Positions 1-52,252 of a stretch of DNA of 64,000 bases are shown one piece after another. Position numbers and translations under genes: made by a program. Numbering within the stretch: the first letter of the stretch is position 1; each line of letters begins with the position of its first letter. Origin of the DNA: Methanomassiliicoccales archaeon (GTDB lineage Archaea; Thermoplasmatota; Thermoplasmata; Methanomassiliicoccales; JACIVX01); contig JARYLV010000005.1 in the NCBI GenBank assembly GCA_029907465.1, positions 22,231 through 86,230 of the forward strand, given 5' to 3'. A model generated the notes under the pieces. It ran no database searches. It was not told the origin of the DNA and saw only the letters and a program-made list of their open reading frames with translations.

Positions 1-536
1 ATCGACCTCAGAATCCTTCCTCCGTCCATCGGAAAAGCAGGGATGAGATTGAATCCTCCGAGCAACAGATTATAGAAGCCAATCGTGCCGCACATGATTC
101 TTAAAGCTTGAATAGGCACGTTTCCTCGCGGAAGATCGTTGAGAAGTAACGCAATTGCGATGAGAACAAATCCAATTGCAAAACTCGTCGCGGGACCAGC
201 AAATGCCATGGTGCCCTCAACTCTTGGATCACGCGGCGTCTCCTCGAGGTGCGCCACACCACCAAACAAGAAAAGAGTGATGCTCTTGATGCGATACCCG
301 TGCCTCAGCGCGATGAAGGAGTGACCAATCTCATGGAGGAGAATGGTGAGGAAGAAAGTGATCGCACAAATAGCACCGAGCACCAGCTTCGCGGGAAGGG
401 AGACGTCAAGAAATGAAAAGCCAAAAATAATGCCGTCAATTTTCACGCCAGTAAATGCAAAAAATGCCGCAAAGATCGGGATAATGATGAGAAAAGTGAA
501 GTGAAAGTAAATGGGAATTCCCTTGATCGATCCCAT
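1..536 (-). CDS. Peptidase M50 (site-2 protease family) zinc metalloprotease; C-terminal part lies outside the window
   Basis: Hand translation of the minus strand from the ATG (complement of 534-536): MGSIKGIPIYFHFTFLIIIPIF...FFLTILLHEIGHSFIALRHG...NLIPAFPMDGGRIL. It has HExxH in a hydrophobic helix plus the NxxPxxPxDGG motif. It is absent from the ORF track because it runs off the edge. Confidence 0.8.
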   Translation of the reverse strand, partial: MGSIKGIPIYFHFTFLIIIPIFAAFFAFTGVKIDGIIFGFSFLDVSLPAKLVLGAICAITFFLTILLHEIGHSFIALRHGYRIKSITLFLFGGVAHLEETPRDPRVEGTMAFAGPATSFAIGFVLIAIALLLNDLPRGNVPIQALRIMCGTIGFYNLLLGGFNLIPAFPMDGGRILRS

Positions 537-1237
537 GCGGAGTGATGTACGCACAGACAGTTATTCATTTATCCTGTCTATTTAATATTCGCTCAAGGTC
601 GTCCAGAACTTCCGATCTTTATCAACCAAGTGGTCAGTTACGACTATCTTTCGACTTCAAAGAATTCAAGAACATCGCTTCATGCATAACCTTTATTTCC
701 CCACAGGACCCGTCGCGAATCCAATTATCCTTATCAGTCTACCGTTGTAACGATTTTGTATGGAAACTGTTGGTCTTAGATATTGATATTAAGAACCCAC
801 AGGATTGAAGTTTCGAGTTTTTTGTTTTTTTTTCCTCGCGCTTACGTGAGCCGATCATTAAGTCCTGGCTAGACTAAATTGATGGTGACATCTTGTCTGG
901 AGTCCTCAAAATTTTCCAGACATCATTCACATTCTTTTATCTACGAGAACAAGAATATGCCGCTTTCCCCCATGTCCGAACTTCAATCTAAGAACTTTGG
1001 GATCGATCCCTTCTGCAACAGAGGGATAATCATTATTTCGAAATTCCCCACCAGGAAAAATTACGATCGCTGATACTCATAAAATTCTTTTGAATTGTTT
1101 ACAAGAAAAGTTCTAGACCATTGGGATTTTTGACCGATTCATTACGTTAATCACTAAAATTCATTATTTCTATGAACCTCTGTCATGCAGCGATGACGAA
1201 ATCGATGTTCACAAAACCAGCTTTTTGATACAAAAGA

Positions 1238-1254
1238 AATATATATAATATAAG
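1238..1254 (+). promoter_or_regulatory. TATA-like box upstream of the giant surface-protein gene; purine-rich AAGGGGG at 1277-1283 is a likely SD
   Basis: The sequence aaatatatataatataa lies about 35-50 nt upstream of ATG 1288, and aaggggg lies 5 nt before the ATG. Confidence 0.4.
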
Positions 1255-1287
1255 GAGCAATTATAACACAAAAAGCAAGGGGGTCAG

Positions 1288-4200
1288 ATGAATAAGTTTT
1301 GTGGAGCTGTGCTCTTATCTGTCCTGCTGATGATCACAGTTCCACTGGTTTCTGAGAGACCTGAAATTGGTCAACATCAGAGTATTATCTCCCAAGCACA
1401 GCATTTTCTTTTAGAGGGTGAAAATGGTCCTGCCGGGAATTTCGATTTGTTCACAACAGTACTTCGAACGAAAAATGACCCGGCATTTATTCGAGTTGGT
1501 GATTTTAATAATGATAGTCGTAAGGACATCGCGGTCGGGAGTGGAGTTAATAAAACGATCGAGTTATTCTTTCAAAGGACAGATGGGACCTTTGCCATTG
1601 AGCCCAGCAGGACAATCAATCTCGGTTCCACAATCACCGGAATGGCAATCGGCGACCTCGACGGTGACGGTACCGATGACATTATAGTGACCTCGGCAAC
1701 AATTCGACGGGCATACTTGCTTTATCAAAGATTTGACTATAGCATTAGCTACAAGGACGCAAGGCCAGATCCATATGGTGTCGTCATAAATGATTTCGAT
1801 GGGGACGGATTCAATGATTTTGCATATGTAAGTTACAATTCTTCCATAAGCCCAAATTGCACCTTCACCGTTCATTTGAAGAAGACTGGCTTCTTTCCGG
1901 AAAATTATGTGAGGTTGGATATTCCAGCTGGTCTTTTCAGGGCTACTCTCATTGAAACAGCGGATTTAGATCAAGACGGACACCCAGATCTGGCGATTGG
2001 AGATACTGATTTTAGCAGAATAGCAATTTATAAAGGAGGTATAGTCAGCGGTATTCCCACTTGGACCCAAATTCAGATCATAGACTCAAGTTCTCTGAGA
2101 AATCCGATCGAAATGCATTTTATACAAGTCGATATGCTTGGGCCAGAAGAGCTTGTTGTGCTTTCAGAAAGAGATAATAAGATTACCATTTTCAAGTATG
2201 ACAGCGCAATCCGGCAATTGATCGAATACATTACAAAAGAAAATCTTGATGATCCAATAACAACCACAATGCTGGATGCAAACGATGATTCAATTCACGA
2301 TTTGATCTCTGTCTCAAGAGATTCTTGCCTCGTAGAGATTTTTCTAACAAAACTAGCCTTGCCATATGGCGAGCCGAATTTCACTTTTCCATCAAATGCA
2401 TTTCCTCTGAAAGCAATTTCTGCGGACATTAATAACGACAGCCTCGATGATTTGATCATTTCAGCAGATGCTACTTCTTTGAATGGATCGATTACCATCT
2501 ATTATAGACTTAAATCTGGCTTCCTTAGTAATGCGAATGAAAATATTTTTCTCGATGGAGGGAGCCTGCCGACATCGATCGTCCAAGGAGATTTTGATAA
2601 AGACGGGATCGTGGAAATTGGTGCTATATGCACGAACAACACTTTGAAATTCCATAAAATTAGCCAACATGAAACAGGATCGAAAGTAACTGGAATATCA
2701 CCGTTTGAAGCTAAGACTGCGGATCTGACTAACGACACAGTCCCAGATATCGTTGTTTCGAACTCAGGGAGCAACAATATTACATTCTATTTTGGTGGAG
2801 ACGCCTTTTTTCAAAACCAAGCAGTTTCATTATCACTACAGATAAATGAATCACTTGACAGCCCAAGAGGTATATCGATCAACGACATAAATGGCGACGG
2901 GAGACCTGATGTGGTCATCGCATGCGACTTTGGGATCCAGATATTTTTCAACATAGGAGCTCCTTCATATTTCGACGAATTCCATTCTTCCACAATCTTA
3001 GCGCCGGGGAGTAGTTACACTCATCTCACAACTGGTAATTTTAATGCGGGGTATGAGACCACGATGAGATGGCCTGCGATGATAGACATCGCAGCCTTCA
3101 ATTCCAGCGCCCGTAAGCTAGAGATTTATTTCCAGCATTATCCTTCCCATTCTTTTTCGATCCTTCAACGAGCGGAATTCGTTCCAGATGCCTCGTCGGT
3201 TGCAGTCTCCCTGAACTCTGGGAAAATCAATAGCGATTCTCTGGTAGATCTTGTCGTGCCATTGAATAACGGGTTATTAGTGGTTTATATTCAGAAGACT
3301 GGCTTGCCAAATGGATTCTCAGATGGTTCAGGTTCAAAGTTTTCGACGTTTTTGCAGAACGGAATTTGGACTGGATCCATCGGTGATCTGGACGATGATG
3401 GGTTTGATGAAATTGCAGTCATGTCTAACCGCATCGGGTTAATCTCTAGTATTGAGTTCGACGGTTCCGCATTTAAACACATCCAGTCTTTTTCGTGTGG
3501 CGGTGGTTTTGGAAATCTATTGGTTGCAGATGTGAATGGTGATCTGAGACACGACTTACTGATTTCATCACCACTCTCTGCTGCAATTTCAATCAATTAC
3601 CAGAATAATCTCCCGCCCCGCGCCCTCGCCCTTTGCGCGAGCAGTCCTCCACTCCAAGAGGGCACAGGAGTTTTCTTCGATGGCCGCAACTCTTCCGATT
3701 CTTATTCGGACAGGGCTTCCCTCAACTACACATGGTTTTTTGGTGATGGCCATATATATTATGGCGATACAGCTTTTCATATTTTTATGGCTGATGGGAA
3801 TTATAATGTTTCATTGAGGGTCATTGACAGAGGGGGACTTTCGAACTACAGCAATATTACAGTAATCATCGAGGATCTATCTCCAACCGCCTCTTTTAAT
3901 ATCAACCCCAGTGAGGTCAACGAAGGTTCAGCGGTTGAGTTCGTTGATACCTCGAGATCATATCCTGACCCCATCATTTCTCGTCGGTGGGAATTTGGCG
4001 ATGGAACTATCGTCGACGGGAATAGCAGTTCAGTCACACATACTTATATGAAAGACGGCACCTATCGTGTCAATTTGACCGTCACGGATTCCGATGAGTC
4101 AGTGAGTTCAACTTCCATTGAAATTCGTGTGCGTGACAACATTCCCTCCGTTTCTTTTATTGTATCACCTGCTTCTCCGATCGAGAATTCAAAAGTCTCT

Positions 4201-6240
4201 TTCATCGATAACTCTTTCTCGTATCCAGATACCATTGTCGCTTGGAACTGGGAGTTTGGAGACGGTGGTACCAGTAATGAGAAGAACCCTGAGCACATCT
4301 ATTCTCAGAATGGAACCTTCACCGTAGTCCTCAGGGTTTGGGACGAAGACGGGAGTACTAATTCCTCTTCGCTGGTCGTTCAAGTGCGTGATTCCGTTCC
4401 TACGGTTCTATTCTCCTTCAATCCGCTGGATCCAAAAGAAGGTCAGCCAGTAATGTTTGAAGATAACTCAACAGCGTATGACGGAATTGTGTCCTGGTCA
4501 TGGGACTTTGGTGATGGGACACATTCTAGCGAGAGAAATCCAAGCCACTATTACGCTGACAATGGCACATTTAATGTGAGACTTACTGTCGTCGACGGGG
4601 ATGGGTCGGTTGCCTCTTTTGAGAGACAGCTCTCTGTCAAAGATACATCCCCCGTTATACTCAAGATGAGCGCACGATCAAATGGTGGCCAGATTATCGA
4701 GGATGCGGAGATAAGTATAGAAGTTGAAATAGGACTTGGATGGGAGAGCCCAAAGAATTTAGGATACTTCTGGGACTACAATTTTTCTGGCACCTTTGAT
4801 ATTTCTGAAATCACGCAAGTAAACAAGACAGTTCACTCCTACCCTAAGCAGGGTACATACTTAGTCGCGGTCAGAGTATGGGATTCTGATTCTTTCGTTG
4901 AGGAAAGCATCATCATAACTGTTTACAACGTAAAACCTGAGGCCAAGTTTTCCTATAGGCTCGTGCAAAGCGGGGAAATTCGATTTGATGCAAGCCTGTC
5001 AGAGGACACTATGAGCGATCTCACTACTTTGGAATACCAATGGAACTTTGATGATGGCAGAGGATGGTCAAATTGGAGCCGTAACCCGGTTGTCCTTCAC
5101 ATGTTCGAGAGTGATGGCAACTATAGTGTCTCGCTGAGAGTGAGGGACGATAACGGCGCAGTGGATGAGACGAGCGCGTGGGTAACCGTTGACAGAAGCC
5201 CGCCAAGCATAGGGAACATCATGGTTGGAGAGGCTATCGTGGGAAAAGCGATCACGGTAACCGCGAGCGTTGAAGACAATATCGCTCTGAGAAATGTGAC
5301 CTTGTTTTACGAAGTTAACAATGAGACCTTCTCAACGCCGATGCTCAAAAGCGAAGGGTCGAGCAACATCTGGGTGGGTCAGATCAAGAGTTTAAACAAG
5401 ACAGGGATTATTGTTTATTGGATTGAAGCAGTCGATGTCAGTGGGAATAAGTTCACAACGGGGAAGCTTGAAGTCCTTGTCACCGAGAAAGCGATCCAAC
5501 CCTCTTTTTGGATCTTGGGCTTGAGCATCGCTGGGCTTGTACTTGGCGGTTTGTACGTATACGTAAGGCAGTTCTCGACAGCTGTTGATGAAGTCTTTGT
5601 GATCTACGAAAATGGATGCCTTATCGCCCACGATACACGCCGGTTGAAACCTGGAATGGATAATGATGTTCTCAGCAGTATGCTCGTCGCGATCCAGGAC
5701 TTTGTAAAAACCGCATTCAAGGACGAGGACACAACAGCACTCAAACGGCTTGACTTTGGCGAAAAGAAAATCCTTGTTGAGAAGGGAGAGAAGATTTACC
5801 TGGTCGCTGTTCTCCACGGAAAGTATGACTCAAAGATCGCACAAAAGATGCCAAAAATTCTGAACGAGATCCATCGGGATTACGGCAGCATCTTTGCACA
5901 ATGGGACGGGGATCTTGAAAAGGTGAGAGGTGTACGGGATAAAGCCCATCTCCTTTTTGCAAGAGAATGGAAGATCCCAGTCGAATTTTTCAAGTCGATC
6001 AGAAAACGCCTTAGTATTGAAAGAGCTCTGACGGTCGAATGCCCGATATGCGGTGAAAAGATTTCACCAAAGAATAGTCAGTGCCCCTCATGTGGGGCCG
6101 AGTTAGACTACGCCGATATATCTGAACTTGAAGATCTGGCAAAAAAAATTGGCCAGGGAGAGGGAACCCCAAGTATCAAGAATGAAAGTGGAGATCAGAA
6201 TATAAAAGGACCAAACGATTCAAATGAAGACGGGTTGTGA
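1288..6240 (+). CDS. Giant (1650 aa) type I membrane surface protein: signal peptide, FG-GAP/VCBS repeat region, 6 PKD domains, Ig-like domain, one TM helix, cytoplasmic Roadblock/LC7-like domain and C-terminal zinc ribbon
   Basis: N-terminal signal MNKFCGAVLLSVLLMITVPLVS. Repeated Ca-binding-like motifs: DFNNDSRKDIAVG, GDLDGDGTDDIIV, DFDGDGFNDFA, DLDQDGHPDLAIGD, DINGDGRPDVVI. PKD signatures such as WEFGDGT..THTYxxxGTYxVxLTVTD occur six times. TM helix FWILGLSIAGLVLGGLYVYV. Tail VFVIYENGCLIAHD..MLVAIQDFV..ILVEKGEKIYLVAVLHG followed by CPICGEKISPKNSQCPSCGAEL. Confidence 0.9.
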   Translation: MNKFCGAVLLSVLLMITVPLVSERPEIGQHQSIISQAQHFLLEGENGPAGNFDLFTTVLRTKNDPAFIRVGDFNNDSRKDIAVGSGVNKTIELFFQRTDGTFAIEPSRTINLGSTITGMAIGDLDGDGTDDIIVTSATIRRAYLLYQRFDYSISYKDARPDPYGVVINDFDGDGFNDFAYVSYNSSISPNCTFTVHLKKTGFFPENYVRLDIPAGLFRATLIETADLDQDGHPDLAIGDTDFSRIAIYKGGIVSGIPTWTQIQIIDSSSLRNPIEMHFIQVDMLGPEELVVLSERDNKITIFKYDSAIRQLIEYITKENLDDPITTTMLDANDDSIHDLISVSRDSCLVEIFLTKLALPYGEPNFTFPSNAFPLKAISADINNDSLDDLIISADATSLNGSITIYYRLKSGFLSNANENIFLDGGSLPTSIVQGDFDKDGIVEIGAICTNNTLKFHKISQHETGSKVTGISPFEAKTADLTNDTVPDIVVSNSGSNNITFYFGGDAFFQNQAVSLSLQINESLDSPRGISINDINGDGRPDVVIACDFGIQIFFNIGAPSYFDEFHSSTILAPGSSYTHLTTGNFNAGYETTMRWPAMIDIAAFNSSARKLEIYFQHYPSHSFSILQRAEFVPDASSVAVSLNSGKINSDSLVDLVVPLNNGLLVVYIQKTGLPNGFSDGSGSKFSTFLQNGIWTGSIGDLDDDGFDEIAVMSNRIGLISSIEFDGSAFKHIQSFSCGGGFGNLLVADVNGDLRHDLLISSPLSAAISINYQNNLPPRALALCASSPPLQEGTGVFFDGRNSSDSYSDRASLNYTWFFGDGHIYYGDTAFHIFMADGNYNVSLRVIDRGGLSNYSNITVIIEDLSPTASFNINPSEVNEGSAVEFVDTSRSYPDPIISRRWEFGDGTIVDGNSSSVTHTYMKDGTYRVNLTVTDSDESVSSTSIEIRVRDNIPSVSFIVSPASPIENSKVSFIDNSFSYPDTIVAWNWEFGDGGTSNEKNPEHIYSQNGTFTVVLRVWDEDGSTNSSSLVVQVRDSVPTVLFSFNPLDPKEGQPVMFEDNSTAYDGIVSWSWDFGDGTHSSERNPSHYYADNGTFNVRLTVVDGDGSVASFERQLSVKDTSPVILKMSARSNGGQIIEDAEISIEVEIGLGWESPKNLGYFWDYNFSGTFDISEITQVNKTVHSYPKQGTYLVAVRVWDSDSFVEESIIITVYNVKPEAKFSYRLVQSGEIRFDASLSEDTMSDLTTLEYQWNFDDGRGWSNWSRNPVVLHMFESDGNYSVSLRVRDDNGAVDETSAWVTVDRSPPSIGNIMVGEAIVGKAITVTASVEDNIALRNVTLFYEVNNETFSTPMLKSEGSSNIWVGQIKSLNKTGIIVYWIEAVDVSGNKFTTGKLEVLVTEKAIQPSFWILGLSIAGLVLGGLYVYVRQFSTAVDEVFVIYENGCLIAHDTRRLKPGMDNDVLSSMLVAIQDFVKTAFKDEDTTALKRLDFGEKKILVEKGEKIYLVAVLHGKYDSKIAQKMPKILNEIHRDYGSIFAQWDGDLEKVRGVRDKAHLLFAREWKIPVEFFKSIRKRLSIERALTVECPICGEKISPKNSQCPSCGAELDYADISELEDLAKKIGQGEGTPSIKNESGDQNIKGPNDSNEDGL
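3600..5195 (+). repeat. Tandem PKD-domain coding repeats (protein-level repeats, about 80 aa each, six copies) inside the giant gene
   Basis: A recurrent (W/F)xFGDG...NPxHxYxxxGxxxVxLxVxDxxG pattern appears in the translated ORF. Confidence 0.75.
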
Positions 6241-6388: not shown

Positions 6389-7123
6389 GTGTCTCCAGCC
6401 GAAACCCTCGTCCTGTTGGTGGTGCTCTGCGGCCTCTTAGCGGTCCTAGCCTATAAATTCAAATTGCTCAGCGCAAGCGGTAGCATAGCGTCAATCGCTG
6501 TGGGACTCACTATTGGCTGGTTCGGATCGATCAGTTGGTTACTCATCCTCATCGTCTTCGTACTCCTCGGATTTCTTGTCACCCGATATAAAATACAGCT
6601 CAAAATGGCAGGAGGATTACAGGAAGGCAAGAGAGGGGAGAGAACATACCGTAATGTGCTCGCCAATGGGTTTGTTCCATTGGTTATCGCTTTGGTCTCG
6701 TACTCCCTGGATTTGCAAAACGAACTGATAGCTCAGATCGCTTACCTTTCCGCGATCAGTGTCGCAGCGGCCGATACTACCGCAAGCGAGCTGGGTGTAT
6801 TGAGCCCTCGAACCTATCTAATAACGAATTTCAATCGAGTGGCACCTGGCACAAATGGAGGGATATCCCTAGCAGGGACAATCTGGGCTGTCATCGCAGC
6901 AACCTTCGCATCAATAATCGGCTGGTTGGCGATTGTGCCAGGTATGTCGATTGATGTAATGGTGGTTATACCCATCTTTGCTGGCGTATCTGGATGTATG
7001 ATCGATAGCTTCATCGGCGCTACGCTCGAGAACCGTGGATTTGTCTCAAAGCTCGGTACCAATGTCATTTCAATGCTTGCCGGCACTGTAATTGCCGTGA
7101 GCATCTTTCAGATGGTCCAGTAG
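6389..7123 (+). CDS. Integral membrane protein, DUF92/TMEM19-like
   Basis: 244 aa with multiple TM helices and the motif AAADTTASELG, resembling the DUF92 AADTxASExG signature. GTG start. Confidence 0.55.
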   Translation: MSPAETLVLLVVLCGLLAVLAYKFKLLSASGSIASIAVGLTIGWFGSISWLLILIVFVLLGFLVTRYKIQLKMAGGLQEGKRGERTYRNVLANGFVPLVIALVSYSLDLQNELIAQIAYLSAISVAAADTTASELGVLSPRTYLITNFNRVAPGTNGGISLAGTIWAVIAATFASIIGWLAIVPGMSIDVMVVIPIFAGVSGCMIDSFIGATLENRGFVSKLGTNVISMLAGTVIAVSIFQMVQ

Positions 7124-7277
7124 AATTTACAATAAGCGCCAACAAGAAGGATTTGTCATTATCTAAAGCCATAGTCGCATCTGCTATGCATGTTACGTGA
7201 GATGGTTCAACCCAAAACAATTATCGACTACAATATTAATTAACATGTAGGGAATGGGTTGAGATAAGAGAATTAAA

Positions 7278-7784
7278 GTGACGCTGATGATGAAAGTAAA
7301 TCTGAAGCGAGGAAACCTTTACTTGTTGCATGGAAGGGATCCAGGCAGACTATTCAATCTTTGCAATAGCGCTAGAAATCAGGGCAGCAAGATCCTCTGT
7401 ATTACAAGGATGCATCCCGATCAATTAGGAGAGGAATACGGAATTCCGCAGGAACAAACTATTTGGATTTCACAAACGGTAGGGCCACGGAATATTAACC
7501 CGCAGAACATGGGAATCCTGACAGAGACCGTCGTTCGATTTCTTTCAGCTAATATAAAATCGATCGTTTTTCTTGAAGGACTCGAGTACCTCATAGCACA
7601 AAATGACTTCACTAAGGTATTGAAGTTCATCAATCATGCGTACGAAGCGGCTGCGATAAACAGAGGCATTATGGTTTTCTTGGTAGATCCCCGTGCTTTC
7701 TCAGCGAGGGAAATGGCGTTTCTCGAAAAATGTGCTGTCGCGATTTGCGAAGGTGATGAAGTTGTTATGAAAATGTCAGATTGA
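7278..7784 (+). CDS. DUF835 domain protein (soluble, stand-alone)
   Basis: KILCITRMHPDQL...TIWISQ...INPQNMGIL...IVFLEGLEYLIAQNDFTKVLKFIN...MVFLVDPRAFSAREMAFLEK matches my memory of the archaeal DUF835 pattern (cItR..P, W(L/I)s, l(D/E)glEYLi). GTG start; ATG alternatives lie 3-4 codons in. Confidence 0.65.
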   Translation: MTLMMKVNLKRGNLYLLHGRDPGRLFNLCNSARNQGSKILCITRMHPDQLGEEYGIPQEQTIWISQTVGPRNINPQNMGILTETVVRFLSANIKSIVFLEGLEYLIAQNDFTKVLKFINHAYEAAAINRGIMVFLVDPRAFSAREMAFLEKCAVAICEGDEVVMKMSD

Positions 7785-7852
7785 GTCTCCCGGGCATCTT
7801 ATGTTTCATCTTTAGTTTCAATTGAGACGCCTGGTCGTTTCAATCAACAAAT

Positions 7853-7860
7853 TATTTATA
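7853..7860 (+). promoter_or_regulatory. TATA box for 5S rRNA
   Basis: The sequence tatttata lies about 33 nt upstream of the predicted mature 5S 5' end. Confidence 0.4.
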
Positions 7861-7892
7861 GATGCTTCCTGTTTAAGCGACACAACGCGAAT

Positions 7893-8015
7893 GGTATGAC
7901 GGCCATAGCGGCGGGGATACACCCGGTCTCATCCGAACCCGGCAGTTAAGCCCGCCCACGTTCCCTGTTGTACTGTGGTGCGCGAGCCCACGGGAAGCAG
8001 GGATCGCTGTCAGCC
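7893..8015 (+). rRNA. 5S ribosomal RNA (stand-alone, not linked to 16S/23S in this window)
   Basis: GGCCATAGCGGCGGGGATACACCCGGTCTCATCCGAACCCGGCAGTTAAGCCCGCC...GTACTGTGGTGCGCGAGCCCACGGGAAGC...GCTGTCAGCC follows the archaeal 5S consensus (CAUAGC..CCGAAC..AGUUAAGCC..GUACUG..GCGAG..GGGAAGC). The terminal helix pairs 5' TGACGGC with 3' GCTGTCA. A T5 run follows at 8026-8030. Confidence 0.9.
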
Positions 8016-8151
8016 ATTCGCACAATTTTTCACGATCAACACAAGGCAACAATGACCCCATCAACATTTCTGCATAAGCAGACTCATTCGAAGGTTAATT
8101 TGAGCAATAAAAGATTTAAGCATCAATGATCGTAATAGGAACCTAGAGTCG

Positions 8152-8976
8152 GTGCCGCTGATGGCTATTTCGTGGGATGTAATGGTCATTGCCGTCGGCG
8201 TGACGGTATTTGCGATCGTCGTCTTCTTTGAGCTGAGATATATGAGGTCGAAAAGGAAAGACAAGATCGAGACGGTGTTAATACGAGATGAAGCGTACAA
8301 CGCATTGATTACTACCAGCGCTGTTTCAAAGGCCCTGAAAGAGAAGAACAAAGATACAACAGATGCAGATCGATTGATTTTCGAAGCGGAAAGAGCCTAT
8401 CAGAGGAGAGATTATTTAACTTGTAAGGAACTGACTGACCAAGCCAAGGAGGCGCTCAGACATGCAAAATCAAAGGATTTTGAGGTTTTCGAGGAGATCG
8501 CTTCAACACCTGCACCGCAGGAGGAGCCAGTTGTTCCATTCCAAGAAGTCAAGAAACTCCCTGTGAACTACATCGAGTCAAAATTTATGATCGAGAGTGC
8601 ACGGATAGGTATCGAGACAGCGAGCCAAAGAGGTTTGGACACAACGGCTGCGAGGGCCTATTTGGAAAGTGCTCAGAAATGTTTTGCAAGTACCGAGTAC
8701 ACGGAAGCGCTCAAATACGCGTATAAAGCGAAGAGGTGCGCGGATGGACAGACCGTCGATCGACCTGCATCGGCGGAAAAGAAAGATGAGGAGGAATTGA
8801 AGGAACGATCTGACGAGGCGGAGAAATGTTTACAATGCGGAGCATTGGTCAGATCTGAGGATAATTTCTGTGGTAAGTGCGGAGCAAAAATCAATAGGAT
8901 TCCTAAATGCCCCTCCTGCTCCGCCGAAGTCGATCCTTCCGATAAATTCTGTAGACGATGCGGGACGAAACTTTAG
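8152..8976 (+). CDS. Membrane-anchored protein with cytoplasmic helical repeats and two C-terminal zinc ribbons
   Basis: One N-terminal TM helix (VMVIAVGVTVFAIVVFF) and helical Ala/Glu/Lys-rich repeats (AERAYQRRDY, AARAYLESAQKCF, ALKYAYKAKR). The C-terminus reads CLQCGALVRSEDNFCGKCGAKI..CPSCSAEVDPSDKFCRRCGTKL. The start could be ATG 8161. Confidence 0.6.
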   Translation: MPLMAISWDVMVIAVGVTVFAIVVFFELRYMRSKRKDKIETVLIRDEAYNALITTSAVSKALKEKNKDTTDADRLIFEAERAYQRRDYLTCKELTDQAKEALRHAKSKDFEVFEEIASTPAPQEEPVVPFQEVKKLPVNYIESKFMIESARIGIETASQRGLDTTAARAYLESAQKCFASTEYTEALKYAYKAKRCADGQTVDRPASAEKKDEEELKERSDEAEKCLQCGALVRSEDNFCGKCGAKINRIPKCPSCSAEVDPSDKFCRRCGTKL

Positions 8977-9184
8977 TCTTGGCGTTCTAGAAGACATTTG
9001 CGATTCCCCGTCATTAAGGGAGACGCCATTAGGAGAATGATTTCGCAGATACGACTCAGTCTTTTGAGAAACACATGGACCCCCTCCATGTTCTGGAGCT
9101 TCGTCAAATTTATAACGACAACAATTCGACTATCAGTCTCTGAGAACCTTTTTATATACACCTTCTGATGCTTTTGCTGGTTGA

Positions 9185-9958
9185 ATGATCCTCGTGAAAT
9201 TAGGCGGTAGTGTCATCACGGAAAAGAGTCAACTGAGGAGTTTTCGCAAAGAAAACGTCGAAAGATTGGTCGATGAAATAAAAAGCGCGAGAAAGAAGAT
9301 CATTCTTGTTCATGGAGCCGGATCCTTCGGACACCTACTTGCCAATGAATACAGCCTGCAAAAGGGTTTTATCTCAAACAACCAGATACCCGGTCTTGCA
9401 AAAGTAATGGTCGATGTGAGGGAACTCAACCTGAATGTCATGAAAATTCTCGAGGAGAAAGGCATTGCTGCTGTCTCCATACCTCCGAGTACATCAACAA
9501 GATTGAACTCTGGCGAGATCGCCTATCTTGATTACGACCTGTTCGAACGATTTATCGAACTAGATACGATGCCCGTGACATTTGGCGACGTCTGCCTCGA
9601 CAAGAGACAGAAGTTCGGGATTTGTTCTGGCGACCAGCTCATGGAAAAACTTGCGAGCCATTTCAAACCGGAAAGGGCGATATTTTGCACGGACGTCGAT
9701 GGCATTTTCTCATCCGATCCAGCATCAAATCCCGATGCTAGATTGATCGAAGAAATCGATCGATCGATTCTAGAGCGCATACCAAAGAGTTCTAAGTATG
9801 TAGATGTGACTGGAGGCATGTTTGGGAAAATTGAGCGAATGGTACGTATCGCGTCGAGGAACTGCGAATGTCTCGTAATTAACGGTAATGTCCCTGGAAG
9901 GCTCAAAGCAGCACTCAAGGGAGACACCGTAAAAGGAACAAGAGTCGTTGGTGAATGA
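9185..9958 (+). CDS. ipk: Isopentenyl phosphate kinase
   Basis: MILVKLGGSVITEK...ILVHGAGSFGH... is an amino-acid-kinase fold with the IPK N-terminal signature. It lies in an operon with IDI2 and GGPPS. Confidence 0.85.
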   Translation: MILVKLGGSVITEKSQLRSFRKENVERLVDEIKSARKKIILVHGAGSFGHLLANEYSLQKGFISNNQIPGLAKVMVDVRELNLNVMKILEEKGIAAVSIPPSTSTRLNSGEIAYLDYDLFERFIELDTMPVTFGDVCLDKRQKFGICSGDQLMEKLASHFKPERAIFCTDVDGIFSSDPASNPDARLIEEIDRSILERIPKSSKYVDVTGGMFGKIERMVRIASRNCECLVINGNVPGRLKAALKGDTVKGTRVVGE

Positions 9959-9962
9959 GTCT

Positions 9963-11030
9963 ATGAGGCGTATCGAGAAAAGGAAGGCTGACCATGTCGA
10001 GGTCTCGATTGAAAAGGATGTCAGTTTTCACTATAACTATTGGGACGATGTGAAACTCGTACACAACGCTCTGCCAGAAGTCGACTTCGAGGAAATTGAT
10101 ACTTCAACAACGCTATTCGGCCGCAAACTCTCATTTCCTCTCATCGTTACCGCAATCACAGGAGGATATGGAAAAGCGGCTGAGATCAATAGGAACATTG
10201 CGAAGGCCTGCGAAGAAATGCAAATCGGAATGGGGGTTGGAAGCCAACGTGCGGCGCTCGAGAACGGTGACGAGAGTAGCTATTCTGTAATCAAAGAGTT
10301 CGATATACCGTTAAAAATCGGGAACATAGGGGCACCACAATTGGTAAAGCAACGGAACAAGAGGGCTTTCGATCTATCTTCCATCGAGAAGGCTTTTCAG
10401 ATGATCGATGCCGACCTCCTCAGCGTCCACCTCAATTTCTTGCAAGAAGTTGTACAGCCTGAAGGGGACACACGGGCAAGGGGATGCTTGGAAGCGCTTA
10501 GAGCGGTCGCCAAGGAGTTCCCAGTAATGGTAAAAGAGACGGGCGCCGGAATTTCGAGGGAAGTAGCCGAGAGACTAAAGGGGACCGGGATTAGAGGGAT
10601 TGATGTCTCTGGTGCTGGAGGGACGAGTTTCTCCGCCGTCGAAAAGTTCAGATCAGAGAAAATCGGCGATGAAAGGGGTGTAGCATTGGGAGAGACTTAC
10701 CGAGACTGGGGGATCCCCGCGCCTGCCTCCGTCATACTAGCAAACGTCGGACTTCCCTTGATCGCAAGTGGGGGGGTTATGAATGGCCTCCATATCGCTA
10801 AGGGTATCATTCTAGGTGCTCAATGCGCTGGCGTTGCGAGATCGATTCTTACCGCTGCGATGGACTCGGCAGAAGCTGTCGTCAAGAAATTGAAGATCAT
10901 GCAACTGGAATTCAGAACCGCGATGTTCCTGACAGGCTGTGCTAGAGTTTCAGATTTTCAAAAAAAGGAGTTTGTGCTCACAGGATTGACAAAGGATTGG
11001 CTTGAACAGTGCTGGAGGAGGAGGATATGA
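9963..11030 (+). CDS. fni: Isopentenyl-diphosphate delta-isomerase, type 2 (FMN-dependent)
   Basis: RKADHV..., PLIVTAITGG, GVGSQR, VKETGAGIS and IDVSGAGGTSF are typical IDI-2 motifs. The track ORF starts at TTG 9948, but ATG 9963 is more likely. Confidence 0.85.
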   Translation: MRRIEKRKADHVEVSIEKDVSFHYNYWDDVKLVHNALPEVDFEEIDTSTTLFGRKLSFPLIVTAITGGYGKAAEINRNIAKACEEMQIGMGVGSQRAALENGDESSYSVIKEFDIPLKIGNIGAPQLVKQRNKRAFDLSSIEKAFQMIDADLLSVHLNFLQEVVQPEGDTRARGCLEALRAVAKEFPVMVKETGAGISREVAERLKGTGIRGIDVSGAGGTSFSAVEKFRSEKIGDERGVALGETYRDWGIPAPASVILANVGLPLIASGGVMNGLHIAKGIILGAQCAGVARSILTAAMDSAEAVVKKLKIMQLEFRTAMFLTGCARVSDFQKKEFVLTGLTKDWLEQCWRRRI

Positions 11031-12022
11031 GCATTCTTTCAGAAATGAGAGGGATCATCGAACGAGTGGACAGGAGTTTGATGTCATACCTTGAGGAAGG
11101 GAAACCGGAGAAATTGATGAAAGCCGTACGCCATTATCCTGAGGCTGGGGGAAAGAGATTAAGGCCACTGGTAGCATACCTCGTCGCTGAGGCTGTTGGC
11201 CATGATGGTGAAGGCTCCATTCCATTCGGATGCGCCCTTGAAATCATTCATAATTTTACGCTGATCCACGATGACATTATTGACCAAGACCCTATGAGAA
11301 GGGGGAGACCATCAGTCCACGTTCTTTTCGACATTCCGACAGCGATTATCGCGGGAGACGCGATGTTCGCGCGTGGATTCGAGGTAATCGGCAAGACCAA
11401 AACGACGCCAGAACGATTGAATCGATTATACGCAATTACTTCTAGAACAGTTTGGTTGATTGCCGAAGGGCAGCAGATGGACTTCGACTTCGAGACGCGG
11501 AACGATGTGACACCGCAGGAATACTTGGAGATGGTTGAGAAAAAAACCGCGGTTCTGTTTGCTTGCGCAGCAGAGGGGGGCGCGATTATTGCGGGGGGGT
11601 CAGAAAACCAGATAAGAGAAATGAGAGAATATGGGAGGATGCTCGGCATTGCCTTCCAGATCTGGGATGATGTCCTCGGGATCACGGGAGAAGAAGAACA
11701 ACTCGGAAAGCCTGTCGGGTCAGACATCCGGAACGGTAAGCGTACACTTATCGTTCTTCATGCATTGAAGGAACTCGACGACAGAAAGGACAAGACGAGA
11801 AAAGAGCTCCTTGTATCCACGCTAGGCAACGAAAAGGCGAACGAGGAGAGGATACATGAGGTTCTCGATGTGCTTCGCGATCTTGGCAGTATTGATTACG
11901 CGAAGGAGACTGCCCTTTCTTTTGTAAAAAAGGCGAAAATGAATCTCGAATGTCTCGATGACAGCAAAGAAAAGGAGATGCTATCGGCACTCGTCGATTT
12001 CGCCGTCGGAAGAAAAAAATGA
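11027..12022 (+). CDS. idsA: Geranylgeranyl diphosphate synthase (trans-polyprenyl synthase)
   Basis: Carries the first and second Asp-rich motifs LIHDDIID and FQIWDDVLG. ATG 11027 follows GGAGGAGGAGGA and overlaps the IDI2 stop (ATGA). The track start is 11009. Confidence 0.85.
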   Translation: MSILSEMRGIIERVDRSLMSYLEEGKPEKLMKAVRHYPEAGGKRLRPLVAYLVAEAVGHDGEGSIPFGCALEIIHNFTLIHDDIIDQDPMRRGRPSVHVLFDIPTAIIAGDAMFARGFEVIGKTKTTPERLNRLYAITSRTVWLIAEGQQMDFDFETRNDVTPQEYLEMVEKKTAVLFACAAEGGAIIAGGSENQIREMREYGRMLGIAFQIWDDVLGITGEEEQLGKPVGSDIRNGKRTLIVLHALKELDDRKDKTRKELLVSTLGNEKANEERIHEVLDVLRDLGSIDYAKETALSFVKKAKMNLECLDDSKEKEMLSALVDFAVGRKK

Positions 12023-12045
12023 GTGTCATCAAGAAAGACAAAGAC

Positions 12046-12771
12046 CTAGCACGAGATTCCCCGGTCTGTGAGCACGAATTCTGCGATCCGATTTTCAGGA
12101 AGATGTCGGTGCTTAACGAGAATTGCTCTTCTTCGCCCCGGCGACAACTTCTCCAGGCGTATAATCACTTTTGCATTGTGATGGAGTGCATGGCCACCTA
12201 GCGCTTCGTATGTGCCCTTCTCAACGTCCGTGTAAACCTGAGATGTCAGCAATATCGGAATGTTCATTTTCCTTGCGACGCTGAGCAACTTGACCGTCTG
12301 ATTCGCAATCGATCTCCTTTCTGACCTTTCTTCCTGCCTGCTCGTCAGGCGGTAATACATCGTCGCGGAATCAAGTACGATCAGGCCGATGTCGGGATTG
12401 CCCTCTGCCATCTTGACTGCCCTGTCGACCATCTTCTCTTGCTCATCGAAGCTATGAACCTCGCTGAACAAGATGTTCTTCACAATTACATCGAAATCGC
12501 CACCAGCGATTTGGCGCAATCTATCCAGAGAGACACCTTCCGTATCGATGTAAGCGACTTTCCTCCCATGCTTGACGATATTGCATGAAAGGAGAAGGCA
12601 AAGGCTGGTTTTGCCGGTGCCAGCCTCTCCGTAGATGAGAGTCAGACAGCCAGTCTCGATACCACCATCGAGCATTGAGTCCAGCGTAGCGCAACCGAAC
12701 GGGATCCTATCCACAATCAGAAAAGGTAGTTGAAAACAATAATCTTTGTTGTTGGTTTCATGAGCGTGCAA
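12046..12771 (-). CDS. radB: RadB recombinase paralogue (RecA-superfamily ATPase)
   Basis: LDSMLDGGIETGCLTLIYGEAGTGKTSLCL (Walker A) and LIVLDS (Walker B). The roughly 240 aa size matches RadB rather than RadA. Confidence 0.8.
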   Translation of the reverse strand: MHAHETNNKDYCFQLPFLIVDRIPFGCATLDSMLDGGIETGCLTLIYGEAGTGKTSLCLLLSCNIVKHGRKVAYIDTEGVSLDRLRQIAGGDFDVIVKNILFSEVHSFDEQEKMVDRAVKMAEGNPDIGLIVLDSATMYYRLTSRQEERSERRSIANQTVKLLSVARKMNIPILLTSQVYTDVEKGTYEALGGHALHHNAKVIIRLEKLSPGRRRAILVKHRHLPENRIAEFVLTDRGISC

Positions 12772-21073: not shown

Positions 21074-21148
21074 GGGGCCGTGGGGTAGCTTGGTCCATCC
21101 TTCGGGCTTTGGGAGCCTGAGACCCCGATTCAAATTCGGGCGGCCCCA
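21074..21148 (+). tRNA. tRNA-Pro (anticodon UGG)
   Basis: Hand-folded cloverleaf. Acceptor GGGGCCG/CGGCCCC. Anticodon stem CGGGC/GCCUG with loop UUUGGGA. T arm CCCGA-TTCAAAT-TCGGG. Discriminator A, no encoded CCA. Confidence 0.9.
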
Positions 21149-30244: not shown

Positions 30245-30357
30245 CCCGACTTAGCTCAGTCTGGCTAGAGCGGCTGACTGTAGTGGGTTACCGGATTGCC
30301 GGTCAAACAGCCGCCGAGATCAGCAGGCCCCCGGTTCAAATCCGGGAGTCGGGACCA
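30245..30357 (+). tRNA. tRNA-Tyr (anticodon GUA) with a 35-nt intron at 37/38 (30284-30318); CCA encoded
   Basis: Hand fold. Acceptor CCCGACT/AGTCGGG, giving the C1:G72 pair typical of archaeal tRNA-Tyr. D arm GCTC..GAGC. Anticodon stem GCTGA/TCAGC with loop CUGUAG|intron|A. T arm CCCGG-TTCAAAT-CCGGG. Ends in ACCA. Confidence 0.85.
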
Positions 30358-52139: not shown

Positions 52140-52252
52140 TGCGGGGGGAGGGATTTGAACCCTCGGACCCCTTCGGGACAGAATGCCTTACGGAAAGGCG
52201 CATGGCTTCCGTCTTAAGTCCTGCGCTTTTGGCCAAGCTTAGCTACCCCCGC
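52140..52252 (-). tRNA. tRNA-Leu (anticodon UAA), class II long variable arm, with a 28-nt intron at 37/38 (52185-52212)
   Basis: Hand fold of the reverse complement. Acceptor GCGGGGG/CCCCCGC. 3-bp D stem GCT/AGC. Anticodon stem CAGGA/UUCUG with loop CUUAAG|intron|A. Variable arm UCCCGAAGGGGU. T arm GAGGG-TTCAAAT-CCCTC. Discriminator A. Confidence 0.85.

Follow-up and report, generated by a model that had tools for sequence, protein, structure and literature searches.

A giant FG-GAP/PKD surface protein of Thermoplasmata with a longin/Roadblock-type tail, and its possible links to Ras/Rab-like GTPases and DUF835

A 64,000-nucleotide stretch of DNA from a Methanomassiliicoccales archaeon (assembly GCA_029907465.1, contig JARYLV010000005.1, positions 22,231 to 86,230 of the forward strand)—'the window', in what follows—contains the gene for a giant surface protein (Table 1). 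Its open reading frame (ORF) starts at the first ATG past the upstream stop codon and specifies a large ectodomain of FG-GAP repeats, PKD domains and an Ig-like domain, followed by a single transmembrane (TM) helix and a tail of 224 amino acids (aa). The tail is the part that concerns us most. In the predicted structure it includes a domain of the longin/Roadblock superfamily, and in relatives of the window gene this domain keeps company with Ras-family GTPases and with DUF835 proteins. We read the whole as an integrin-like surface receptor or adhesin, and not as a passive coat protein; on this reading a Ras/Rab-like GTPase, DUF835, or both would have in the tail a platform for docking or regulation. 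We would give it somewhat better than even odds, about 55%.

In eukaryotic membrane identity, in mTOR signaling, and in bacterial cell polarity, a central part is played by small GTPases and the longin or Roadblock platforms with which they pair; in archaea other than those of the Asgard group such pairs are, to our knowledge, almost unstudied. The literature that we searched held no description of the archaeal surface-protein architecture reported here, and no fold assignment for the domain. Apparently, a longin/Roadblock–GTPase module has been built into giant surface proteins, by way of a domain family that is unmodeled in the libraries, and for archaea undescribed in the literature, that were searched.

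The giant protein and its tail

The 1650-aa protein has two hydrophobic segments, and only two: residues 3–22 at the N-terminus and residues 1407–1426 near the other end. Between them, Pfam matches the FG-GAP region with FG-GAP_3 (1.8e-32) and FG-GAP (4.7e-22), in six stretches each, and a motif scan locates six DxDxDG-type calcium loops there, at residues 123, 169, 226, 435, 533 and 700. The PKD array, too, is matched in six stretches by each of two models, PKD_4 (1.8e-84) and PKD (1.6e-61). Matches to the Ig-like domain next to the membrane are weak, and homologs carry a precomputed PF19077 match where this domain sits. The first-pass annotation, which was made from the letters of the sequence, had proposed this same series of parts, from the signal-like N-terminus through the FG-GAP repeats with their DxDxDG loops, the six PKD domains and the membrane-proximal Ig-like domain to the single TM helix, and the ORF list, the Pfam matches and the hydropathy profile bear it out.

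The sequence supports a type I topology, with the ectodomain outside the cell and the tail in the cytoplasm. We favor this orientation because the N-terminus is signal-like and the TM helix single, because N-x-S/T sequons are divided 30 in the ectodomain versus two in the tail—both of them within its disordered end—because the tail bears a four-cysteine (Cys4) zinc ribbon, and because domains of the tail type occur also in soluble proteins, TM-less and fused to DUF835 or TPR. In bacterial OmpA-domain proteins the tail-type domain is found, likewise, on the cytoplasmic side. A cytoplasmic tail of about 220 aa had been annotated at the outset, and these indications agree with it.

The longin/Roadblock-like domain starts about five residues beyond the TM helix, which ends at residue 1426, the domain beginning at 1432. 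The rest of the tail was also correctly read the first time, as a CPxCG-x9-CPxCG ribbon with an acidic end. Spelled out, the ribbon reads C1585-P-I-C-G-x9-C1599-P-S-C-G. The Pfam model Zn_ribbon_3 gives it 25.5 bits, just below the 27-bit cut-off, and in the AlphaFold2 (AF2) model it forms short strands with predicted local distance difference test (pLDDT) values of 91–94. After it comes an acidic, amphipathic helix, residues 185–196 of the tail in the same model, whose pattern D-D-L-E-x-x-A-x-D-L is kept in all of the homologs that bear the ribbon; it is possibly a short docking motif. Acidic residues outnumber basic ones at the very end, with 11 D/E versus four K/R among the last 44 residues of the protein.

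The conserved core of the tail, some 130 aa (1432–1562), reads VDEVFVIY..TRRLKPGMD..MLVAIQDFVKDSFKD..RLDFGEKKILVEKG..YLAVVLHG..WDGDLEKVRGV. Compared with Pfam, NCBIfam and PADLOC, the tail produces zinc-ribbon matches only, with nothing else in Pfam or NCBIfam at E<=1. Robl_LC7 (PF03259) is not matched at E<=1 in the Pfam scan, nor is any longin family profile matched significantly there, and PDB sequences searched with the tail (phmmer) and with the family profile return nothing at E<=10. The family itself is very large. Run against 1.84 billion proteins, a profile of the core finds at least 4698 clusters at E<=1e-3 and 2747 at E<=1e-10, the clusters being represented at 50% identity. Family members have no precomputed Pfam match across the domain region and the profile search of PDB comes back empty; this is, therefore, a large domain family that is unmodeled in the libraries searched.

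The window contains one copy of the domain, and a search of its six-frame translation with the domain profile finds no second. Elsewhere, long members abound. Among the top 101 proteins of 600 aa or more, the domain directly follows a TM helix, and is at or near the C-terminus, in 64; 22 are giants that have no TM helix and contain the domain two or three times; a zinc ribbon follows the domain in only 15. The ribbon, then, is a lineage-specific addition. The first-pass annotation considered such a tail unusual for an archaeal adhesin-like protein; it is not, because the family runs to thousands of clusters and those 64 long members share the arrangement of surface protein, TM helix and domain. 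Certain of the TM-less giants (P0023, P0033, P0036, P0074 and others, 1100–2400 aa) are made of a unit of helical-hairpin repeats, CARDB and tail-type domain, present two or three times, with DUF5915, which is the domain at the C-terminus of isoleucyl-tRNA synthetase (IleRS), at their end. At one locus (L081, 6001–6636) a soluble member of 211 aa consists of a cysteine-rich N-terminus and the domain, and its gene sits between those for a protein of ~1970 aa and for a 1368-aa FG-GAP protein on the opposite strand; domain and FG-GAP ectodomain are on separate polypeptides there.

The AF2 model covers residues 1–200 of the tail as a single chain, was built on 79 sequences, and has a mean pLDDT of 83.5. 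Its elements come in the order b1-b2-a1-b3-b4-b5-a2, then short helices, the ribbon, and the C-terminal helix; b1 begins five residues past the TM helix, and there is no N-terminal helix. Searched against PDB with Foldseek, the model finds 99 matches at E<=1e-3. The best of these is the Mon1-Ccz1 longin heterodimer (5ldd_B, 4.8e-5, 156 columns), with further Mon1-Ccz1 longin matches in 5ldd_E and 9l0d. MglB is matched with target-normalized TM-scores of 0.65–0.70 and root-mean-square deviations (rmsd) of 2.3–2.6 Å over ~105 columns; MglB 6hjm, for example, gives 0.70 and 2.4 Å over 106 columns. Other matches include Asgard Roadblock2/3, a Streptomyces Roadblock protein, dynein LC7, LAMTOR, the sigma subunits of AP complexes, and TRAPP (3cue), and further Roadblock-type structures among them are 3kye, 9jue, 9jq8, 5x6u and 3l9k; for the Roadblock-type matches Foldseek gives a probability of 1.00. 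GTPase-platform domains predominate among the 50 best matches listed, and no PAS or GAF sensor is among those 50.

The model superposes on solved structures of the Roadblock alpha-beta sandwich, with its five-stranded antiparallel sheet, and on solved longin domains. Roadblock domains have the order a-b-b-a-b-b-b, starting with an N-terminal helix, and the model does not; its order is that of longin domains, b-b-a-b-b-b-a. Because there is no sequence match to Roadblock/LC7, and because the order of elements is of the longin type, the tail domain is, as modeled, a separate family inside the longin/Roadblock superfamily. The first reading of the tail as Roadblock/LC7, and MglB-like, was thus right about the class of fold and wrong about both the PF03259 sequence family and the order of the elements.

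Table 1. The giant gene, the parts of its product, and its conserved downstream neighbors (nucleotide positions in the window)
Feature	Residues (aa)	Position	Strand	Basis
Whole gene, 1650-aa type I membrane protein (predicted topology)	1–1650	1288..6240	+	ORF list, translation; syntenic orthologs at 68/80 Thermoplasmata loci
N-terminal hydrophobic, signal-like segment	1–23	1288..1356	+	Kyte-Doolittle peak 2.37, residues 4–22
FG-GAP repeat region, presumed beta-propeller(s)	~60–760	1465..3567 (boundaries approximate)	+	Pfam, motif positions
Array of six PKD domains	~775–1305	3610..5202 (boundaries approximate)	+	Pfam
Membrane-proximal Ig-like domain	~1306–1400	5203..5487	+	Weak Big_13 and DUF4625 matches
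Single TM helix FWILGLSIAGLVLGGLYVYV	1407–1426	5506..5565	+	Hydropathy
Longin/Roadblock-like domain, predicted cytoplasmic; no Pfam model	1432–1562	5581..5973	+	Alignment, AF2, Foldseek
Cys4 zinc ribbon CPxCG-x9-CPxCG	1582–1606	6031..6105	+	Cysteine positions, Zn_ribbon_3; kept in some of the orthologs
Acidic helix ISELEDLAKKIG, then disordered acidic end		6112..6237 (helix 6112–6159)	+	AF2, homologs, charge count
DUF92 integral membrane protein, conserved immediate downstream neighbor		6389..7123	+	Pfam DUF92 4.8e-54
DUF835 ('inactivated KaiC') protein, candidate partner of the cytoplasmic tail		7278..7784	+	Pfam DUF835 4.7e-33
Protein with TM helix, helical-hairpin repeats and three zinc ribbons, syntenic neighbor		8152..8976	+	Pfam zinc ribbons

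Orthologs and genomic neighbors

A scan of genomes, one per species, yielded 80 loci, all of them in Methanomassiliicoccales, in other Thermoplasmata, or in the DHVE2 group. This survey, which the first-pass annotation had recommended for related Thermoplasmata, shows that the giant gene is a syntenic ortholog throughout Methanomassiliicoccales and Thermoplasmata. Downstream of it come DUF92 (68/80), sometimes DUF835, the TM/zinc-ribbon protein (53/80), isoprenoid genes, and, on the opposite strand, RadB. The tail of the best locus (L001) is 92% identical to that of the window protein; across the 80 loci the core of the tail is 48–92% identical, versus 22–63% for the ectodomain. The inside part of this surface protein, in other words, is far more constrained than the outside part, which fits a conserved intracellular partner.

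Four of the DHVE2 orthologs (L074, L078, L079 and L080) have the same architecture of FG-GAP, PKD, TM helix and domain, and in all four a 264-aa Ras-family gene (Pfam Ras 1.3e-39) converges on the giant gene and lies 1–3 nucleotides (nt) from its end. As a background, the flanks of the genome-derived loci add up to 1.14 Mb, and the only GTPase matches within them are the four adjacent ones. The DHVE2-type GTPase carries a C-terminal extension of ~100 aa and belongs to a widespread family, some members of which are labeled 'Rab family GTPase [Thermoplasmata archaeon]'.

Metagenome contigs, scanned with a profile of diverse members of the domain family, also yielded 80 loci, only 16 of which have 1.5 kb on both sides; at 13 of the 80 the domain-bearing ORF has a Ras-family gene no more than 1.5 kb away. 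Two arrangements recur, both confirmed with Pfam: at eight loci a GTPase precedes a ~1400-aa protein with the domain at its end, and at L151 and L169 a GTPase comes after four tandem surface proteins, each ending in the domain. At L088, a GTPase gene is found ~20 nt downstream of, and on the same strand as, the gene for a 2750-aa FG-GAP protein with a tail-type domain at its C-terminus (2.4e-27). In the DHVE2, L088 and metagenome cases the GTPase gene, never more than 1.5 kb from the domain gene, matches Pfam Ras at 1e-34 to 1e-39. The GTPase-adjacent cases make up nine clades whose domains are less than 60% identical from one clade to another; the DHVE2 orthologs are among them, and so are bacterial operons of the 'Group 1 Rup' type.

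The bacterial members concerned (P0224–P0226) match the domain profile at 1e-11 to 1e-12 in a database of 5.8 billion proteins, with ~79% coverage, and at 4e-18 in a local search, over profile positions 2–117. Their operons encode a coiled-coil protein; a protein composed of an N-terminal region, the domain, a TM helix and OmpA; a 167-aa Arf/Ras/Roc GTPase; and a cyclase. This is the neighborhood that Wuichet and Sogaard-Andersen described in 2014 for Group 1 Rup GTPases (PMC4316618), in the supplement of which Methanomassiliicoccales have no entry. The DHVE2 GTPase and the GTPase of the bacterial operon are 38% identical (3e-30).

DUF835 is the other recurrent companion. A DUF835 gene occupies the same position, two genes downstream of the giant gene, in the window and at 24 related Methanomassiliicoccales loci, and at least three independent fusions join DUF835 to the domain, in both orders: TM helix, domain, DUF835 (P0154); DUF835 and domain, with a linker of ~8 residues (L149); and DUF835, domain, TPR (L154). 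DUF835 genes stand next to GTPase genes as well. At L089 the order is DUF835, a 135-aa protein, and then a GTPase, and at L090 and L093/L094 it is GTPase, GTPase, and then V4R-DUF835. Domain, GTPase and DUF835 are associated pairwise in genomes, and the three elements thus form a triangle. Galperin and colleagues count DUF835, as an inactivated KaiC, among the output domains of archaeal response regulators, those of Thermoplasmata included (PMC5847659).

The genes at L090 (8001–10392), L093 (8001–10336) and L094 constitute a conserved operon, for a 273-aa GTPase, a 181-aa GTPase, and the V4R-DUF835 protein, and suggest a ligand-sensing branch of the same system. L080 has, in addition, a gene at 123–3143 on the minus strand, divergent from the giant gene and ~2.5 kb upstream of it, for a 1006-aa DHVE2 protein that combines a tRNA-ligase anticodon-binding domain with DUF5915, HhH, a zinc ribbon and DUF835. 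An IleRS-like C-terminus, a zinc ribbon, and DUF835 are partners that recur around the tail domain family.

In the window, the conserved block spans 6389–12771, directly 3' of the giant gene, and it is found Thermoplasmata-wide. Its amino-acid-kinase-family gene is likely an isopentenyl phosphate kinase, and its FMN-dependent dehydrogenase gene likely a type-2 isopentenyl diphosphate isomerase; a polyprenyl synthase gene follows, before RadB on the minus strand. The TM/zinc-ribbon neighbor may belong to the same system as the giant protein. It has two helical hairpins with the pattern G-x-D-x-x-x-A-x-x-L-L-x-x-A-x-x-x-x-x-x-x-x-Y, which show a weak similarity to the repeats found in cytoplasmic giants that bear the domain (BLASTP E 4e-4 with P0023 and 5e-3 with P0163). 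A stand-alone 5S rRNA gene (95.5 bits) also lies in the block, at 7895–8015 (+), between the DUF835 and TM/zinc-ribbon genes. Rfam finds tRNA matches of 110 and 113 nt at 30245–30354 (+) and 52140–52252 (-), neither of them found by ARAGORN, which reports a single tRNA for the window, tRNA-Pro at 21074–21148; the two long matches are probably intron-containing archaeal tRNAs. A defense-system reading of the giant gene was considered and rejected: PADLOC has no matches, and the gene is chromosomal, an ortholog in conserved synteny.

What the tail might do

If the parts work as they appear to, calcium-binding FG-GAP propeller(s) would stand out from the cell, with the PKD and Ig domains as their stalk, and the juxtamembrane domain, beneath them, would be a membrane-fixed docking or regulatory platform, acting as a GTPase-activating protein (GAP), as a guanine nucleotide exchange factor (GEF), or as a scaffold. 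Its likely partners would be the 'inactivated KaiC' protein DUF835 and a small GTPase of the Ras/Rab type. Binding by the ectodomain would then be coupled to a switch in the cytoplasm, or else the ectodomain would be under the control of that switch. Ribbon and acidic helix would be extra, lineage-specific modules of interaction. We favor a platform role for the tail because of the analogy with MglB, Ragulator and Mon1-Ccz1, and because of the gene neighborhoods of its relatives; we infer, rather than observe, the binding of GTPase or DUF835, the catalytic role, the direction of signaling, and the presence of a GTPase in this organism.

Several facts weigh against this view. Neither a P-loop plus NKxD scan nor a search with a hidden Markov model of the GTPase family detects a small GTPase in the window, MglA-like or other, and Pfam scans of 20 further window ORFs find housekeeping genes only, no GTPase or Roadblock gene among them. 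There is none, either, within 10 kb of the giant gene at the 70 closest non-DHVE2 loci (L001–L070). The position of the gene beside DUF92 and isoprenoid genes could be merely a reflection of vertically inherited gene order. And adjacency and fusion are not proof of binding, nor do they tell GAP, GEF and scaffold apart. The suggestion of GTPase coupling in the first-pass annotation therefore comes out divided: the neighborhoods of relatives in nine clades speak for it, and the window and its closest relatives do not.

It could be, then, that in this lineage the tail works with no GTPase at all, and docks DUF835 so as to tie the surface protein to two-component-type signaling. This is a serious rival, although we think it rather unlikely. 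In its favor are the DUF835 gene of the window (7278–7784), which has counterparts similarly placed at 24 related loci, the domain–DUF835 fusions in both orders, the lack of a GTPase near any Methanomassiliicoccales locus examined, and the existence in Thermoplasmata of REC-DUF835 response regulators (PMC5847659). Yet about half of the Methanomassiliicoccales loci, and most of those in other Thermoplasmata, have no DUF835 at that position, and the tail is conserved in them nonetheless. DUF835 itself, moreover, adjoins the GTPase family elsewhere; both partners, therefore, probably belong to one system and are not alternatives. Less likely again is that the tail is a purely structural, dimerizing anchor that switches nothing, and that a longin/Roadblock-type dimer simply pairs copies of a coat protein or adhesin, or ties them to a scaffold beneath the membrane. 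Roadblock and longin domains are typically dimers, the domain begins ~5 residues past the TM helix, the gene has the conserved and syntenic look of a housekeeping gene of Thermoplasmata, and many Thermoplasmata lack a rigid wall, all of which would suit an anchor. An anchor does not account for Ras-like GTPase genes that turn up next door again and again, in nine clades, for soluble proteins in which the domain is fused to DUF835 and TPR, or for the invariance of surface-loop motifs, such as TRRLKPGMD and WDGD, that are far better conserved than the ectodomain; it is because of these recurrent associations and invariant loops that we rank it lower.

The domain might, lastly, be a small-molecule sensor of the profilin-like (PAS/GAF-like) fold class that reports the state of the cytoplasm to the ectodomain, inside-out. 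Longin and Roadblock domains do share a profilin-like fold with GAF and PAS sensors (PMC4917890), and V4R ligand-binding domains are present in neighboring DUF835 proteins; nonetheless, the 50 best Foldseek matches listed are mostly GTPase-platform proteins and include no PAS or GAF domain, and the tail domain has no ligand pocket or cofactor motif that we could identify. We regard this explanation as very improbable.

The docking platform for a GTPase and/or DUF835 remains our preference. A stronger version of it, which we offer tentatively and would not back at even odds, is that the tail domain is a membrane-anchored regulator—GEF, GAP or recruitment platform—of Rab/Rup-like GTPases in Thermoplasmatota and other prokaryotes. 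If this were true, fast-evolving, integrin-like surface proteins would be wired to a Ras-superfamily switch and an inactivated-KaiC adaptor, in a widespread and hitherto undescribed prokaryotic system of outside-in or inside-out signaling. It would also be a case outside the Asgard archaea of the membrane module, longin plus small GTPase, that underlies eukaryotic trafficking. Surkont and Pereira-Leal noted lone Rab-like GTPases in Aciduliprofundum and in a Thermoplasmatales archaeon, without a membrane-association signal (PMC4915359); a longin-like domain on a TM-anchored surface protein, beside a Rab-like GTPase, is a testable answer to the absence of that signal. More generally, our findings offer a fold and a likely role for the 'domain of unknown function' of the bacterial Rup operons and for a family of thousands of proteins without a Pfam model, and, through its link to the tail-domain system, a likely role for DUF835.

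Comparison with known systems

The nearest described relative is the OmpA protein of the Group 1 Rup operons (PMC4316618), the unnamed 'conserved domain of unknown function' of which is homologous to the tail domain. In both proteins the domain lies—by prediction, for ours—in the cytoplasm beside a TM helix, with an extracytoplasmic domain across the membrane, and in relatives of the window gene, if not in the window, a Ras-superfamily GTPase is the neighbor. The differences are largely ones of layout. The Rup domain comes before the TM helix, and what lies outside is an OmpA domain that binds peptidoglycan, whereas the window domain is C-terminal to the helix, behind an FG-GAP/PKD ectodomain of 1400 aa, and the window gene is without an adjacent GTPase, coiled-coil protein, or cyclase gene.

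With MglB and the Roadblock/LC7 proteins, LAMTOR/Ragulator and the Asgard Roadblock proteins among them, the tail domain shares, in the model, the same alpha-beta sandwich; like Ragulator it is held at the membrane, and the genes of its relatives adjoin small GTPase genes. It differs in having no detectable sequence similarity to these proteins, no N-terminal helix, and a longin-type order of elements; and instead of forming a small, soluble dimer it is joined covalently to the rest of a giant membrane protein. The longin regulators of GTPases (Mon1-Ccz1, Bet5/Trs23 of TRAPP, AP sigma, and SRX of SR-alpha) are closer in plan, with b-b-a-b-b-b-a plus helices, and again there is no sequence match; the tail domain belongs to a non-Asgard archaeon and is fused to a surface receptor, and GEF activity is, in its case, conjectural.

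Integrin alpha subunits combine FG-GAP repeats that have DxDxDG calcium loops with an Ig-like stalk, one TM helix, and a tail that couples to regulators in the cytoplasm; the window protein is built along the same lines, the coupling of its tail being proposed. Integrin tails are short and unstructured, and integrins are alpha-beta heterodimers. The tail of the window protein, by contrast, has a folded domain of 130 aa and, after it, a zinc ribbon, and the Pfam scan of the neighboring genes, the one search that bore on a beta subunit, shows none. The resemblance is one of architecture, and we claim no orthology. Should the ectodomain and the tail prove to be coupled as we suppose, these archaea would possess a receptor design that is functionally analogous to that of the integrins.

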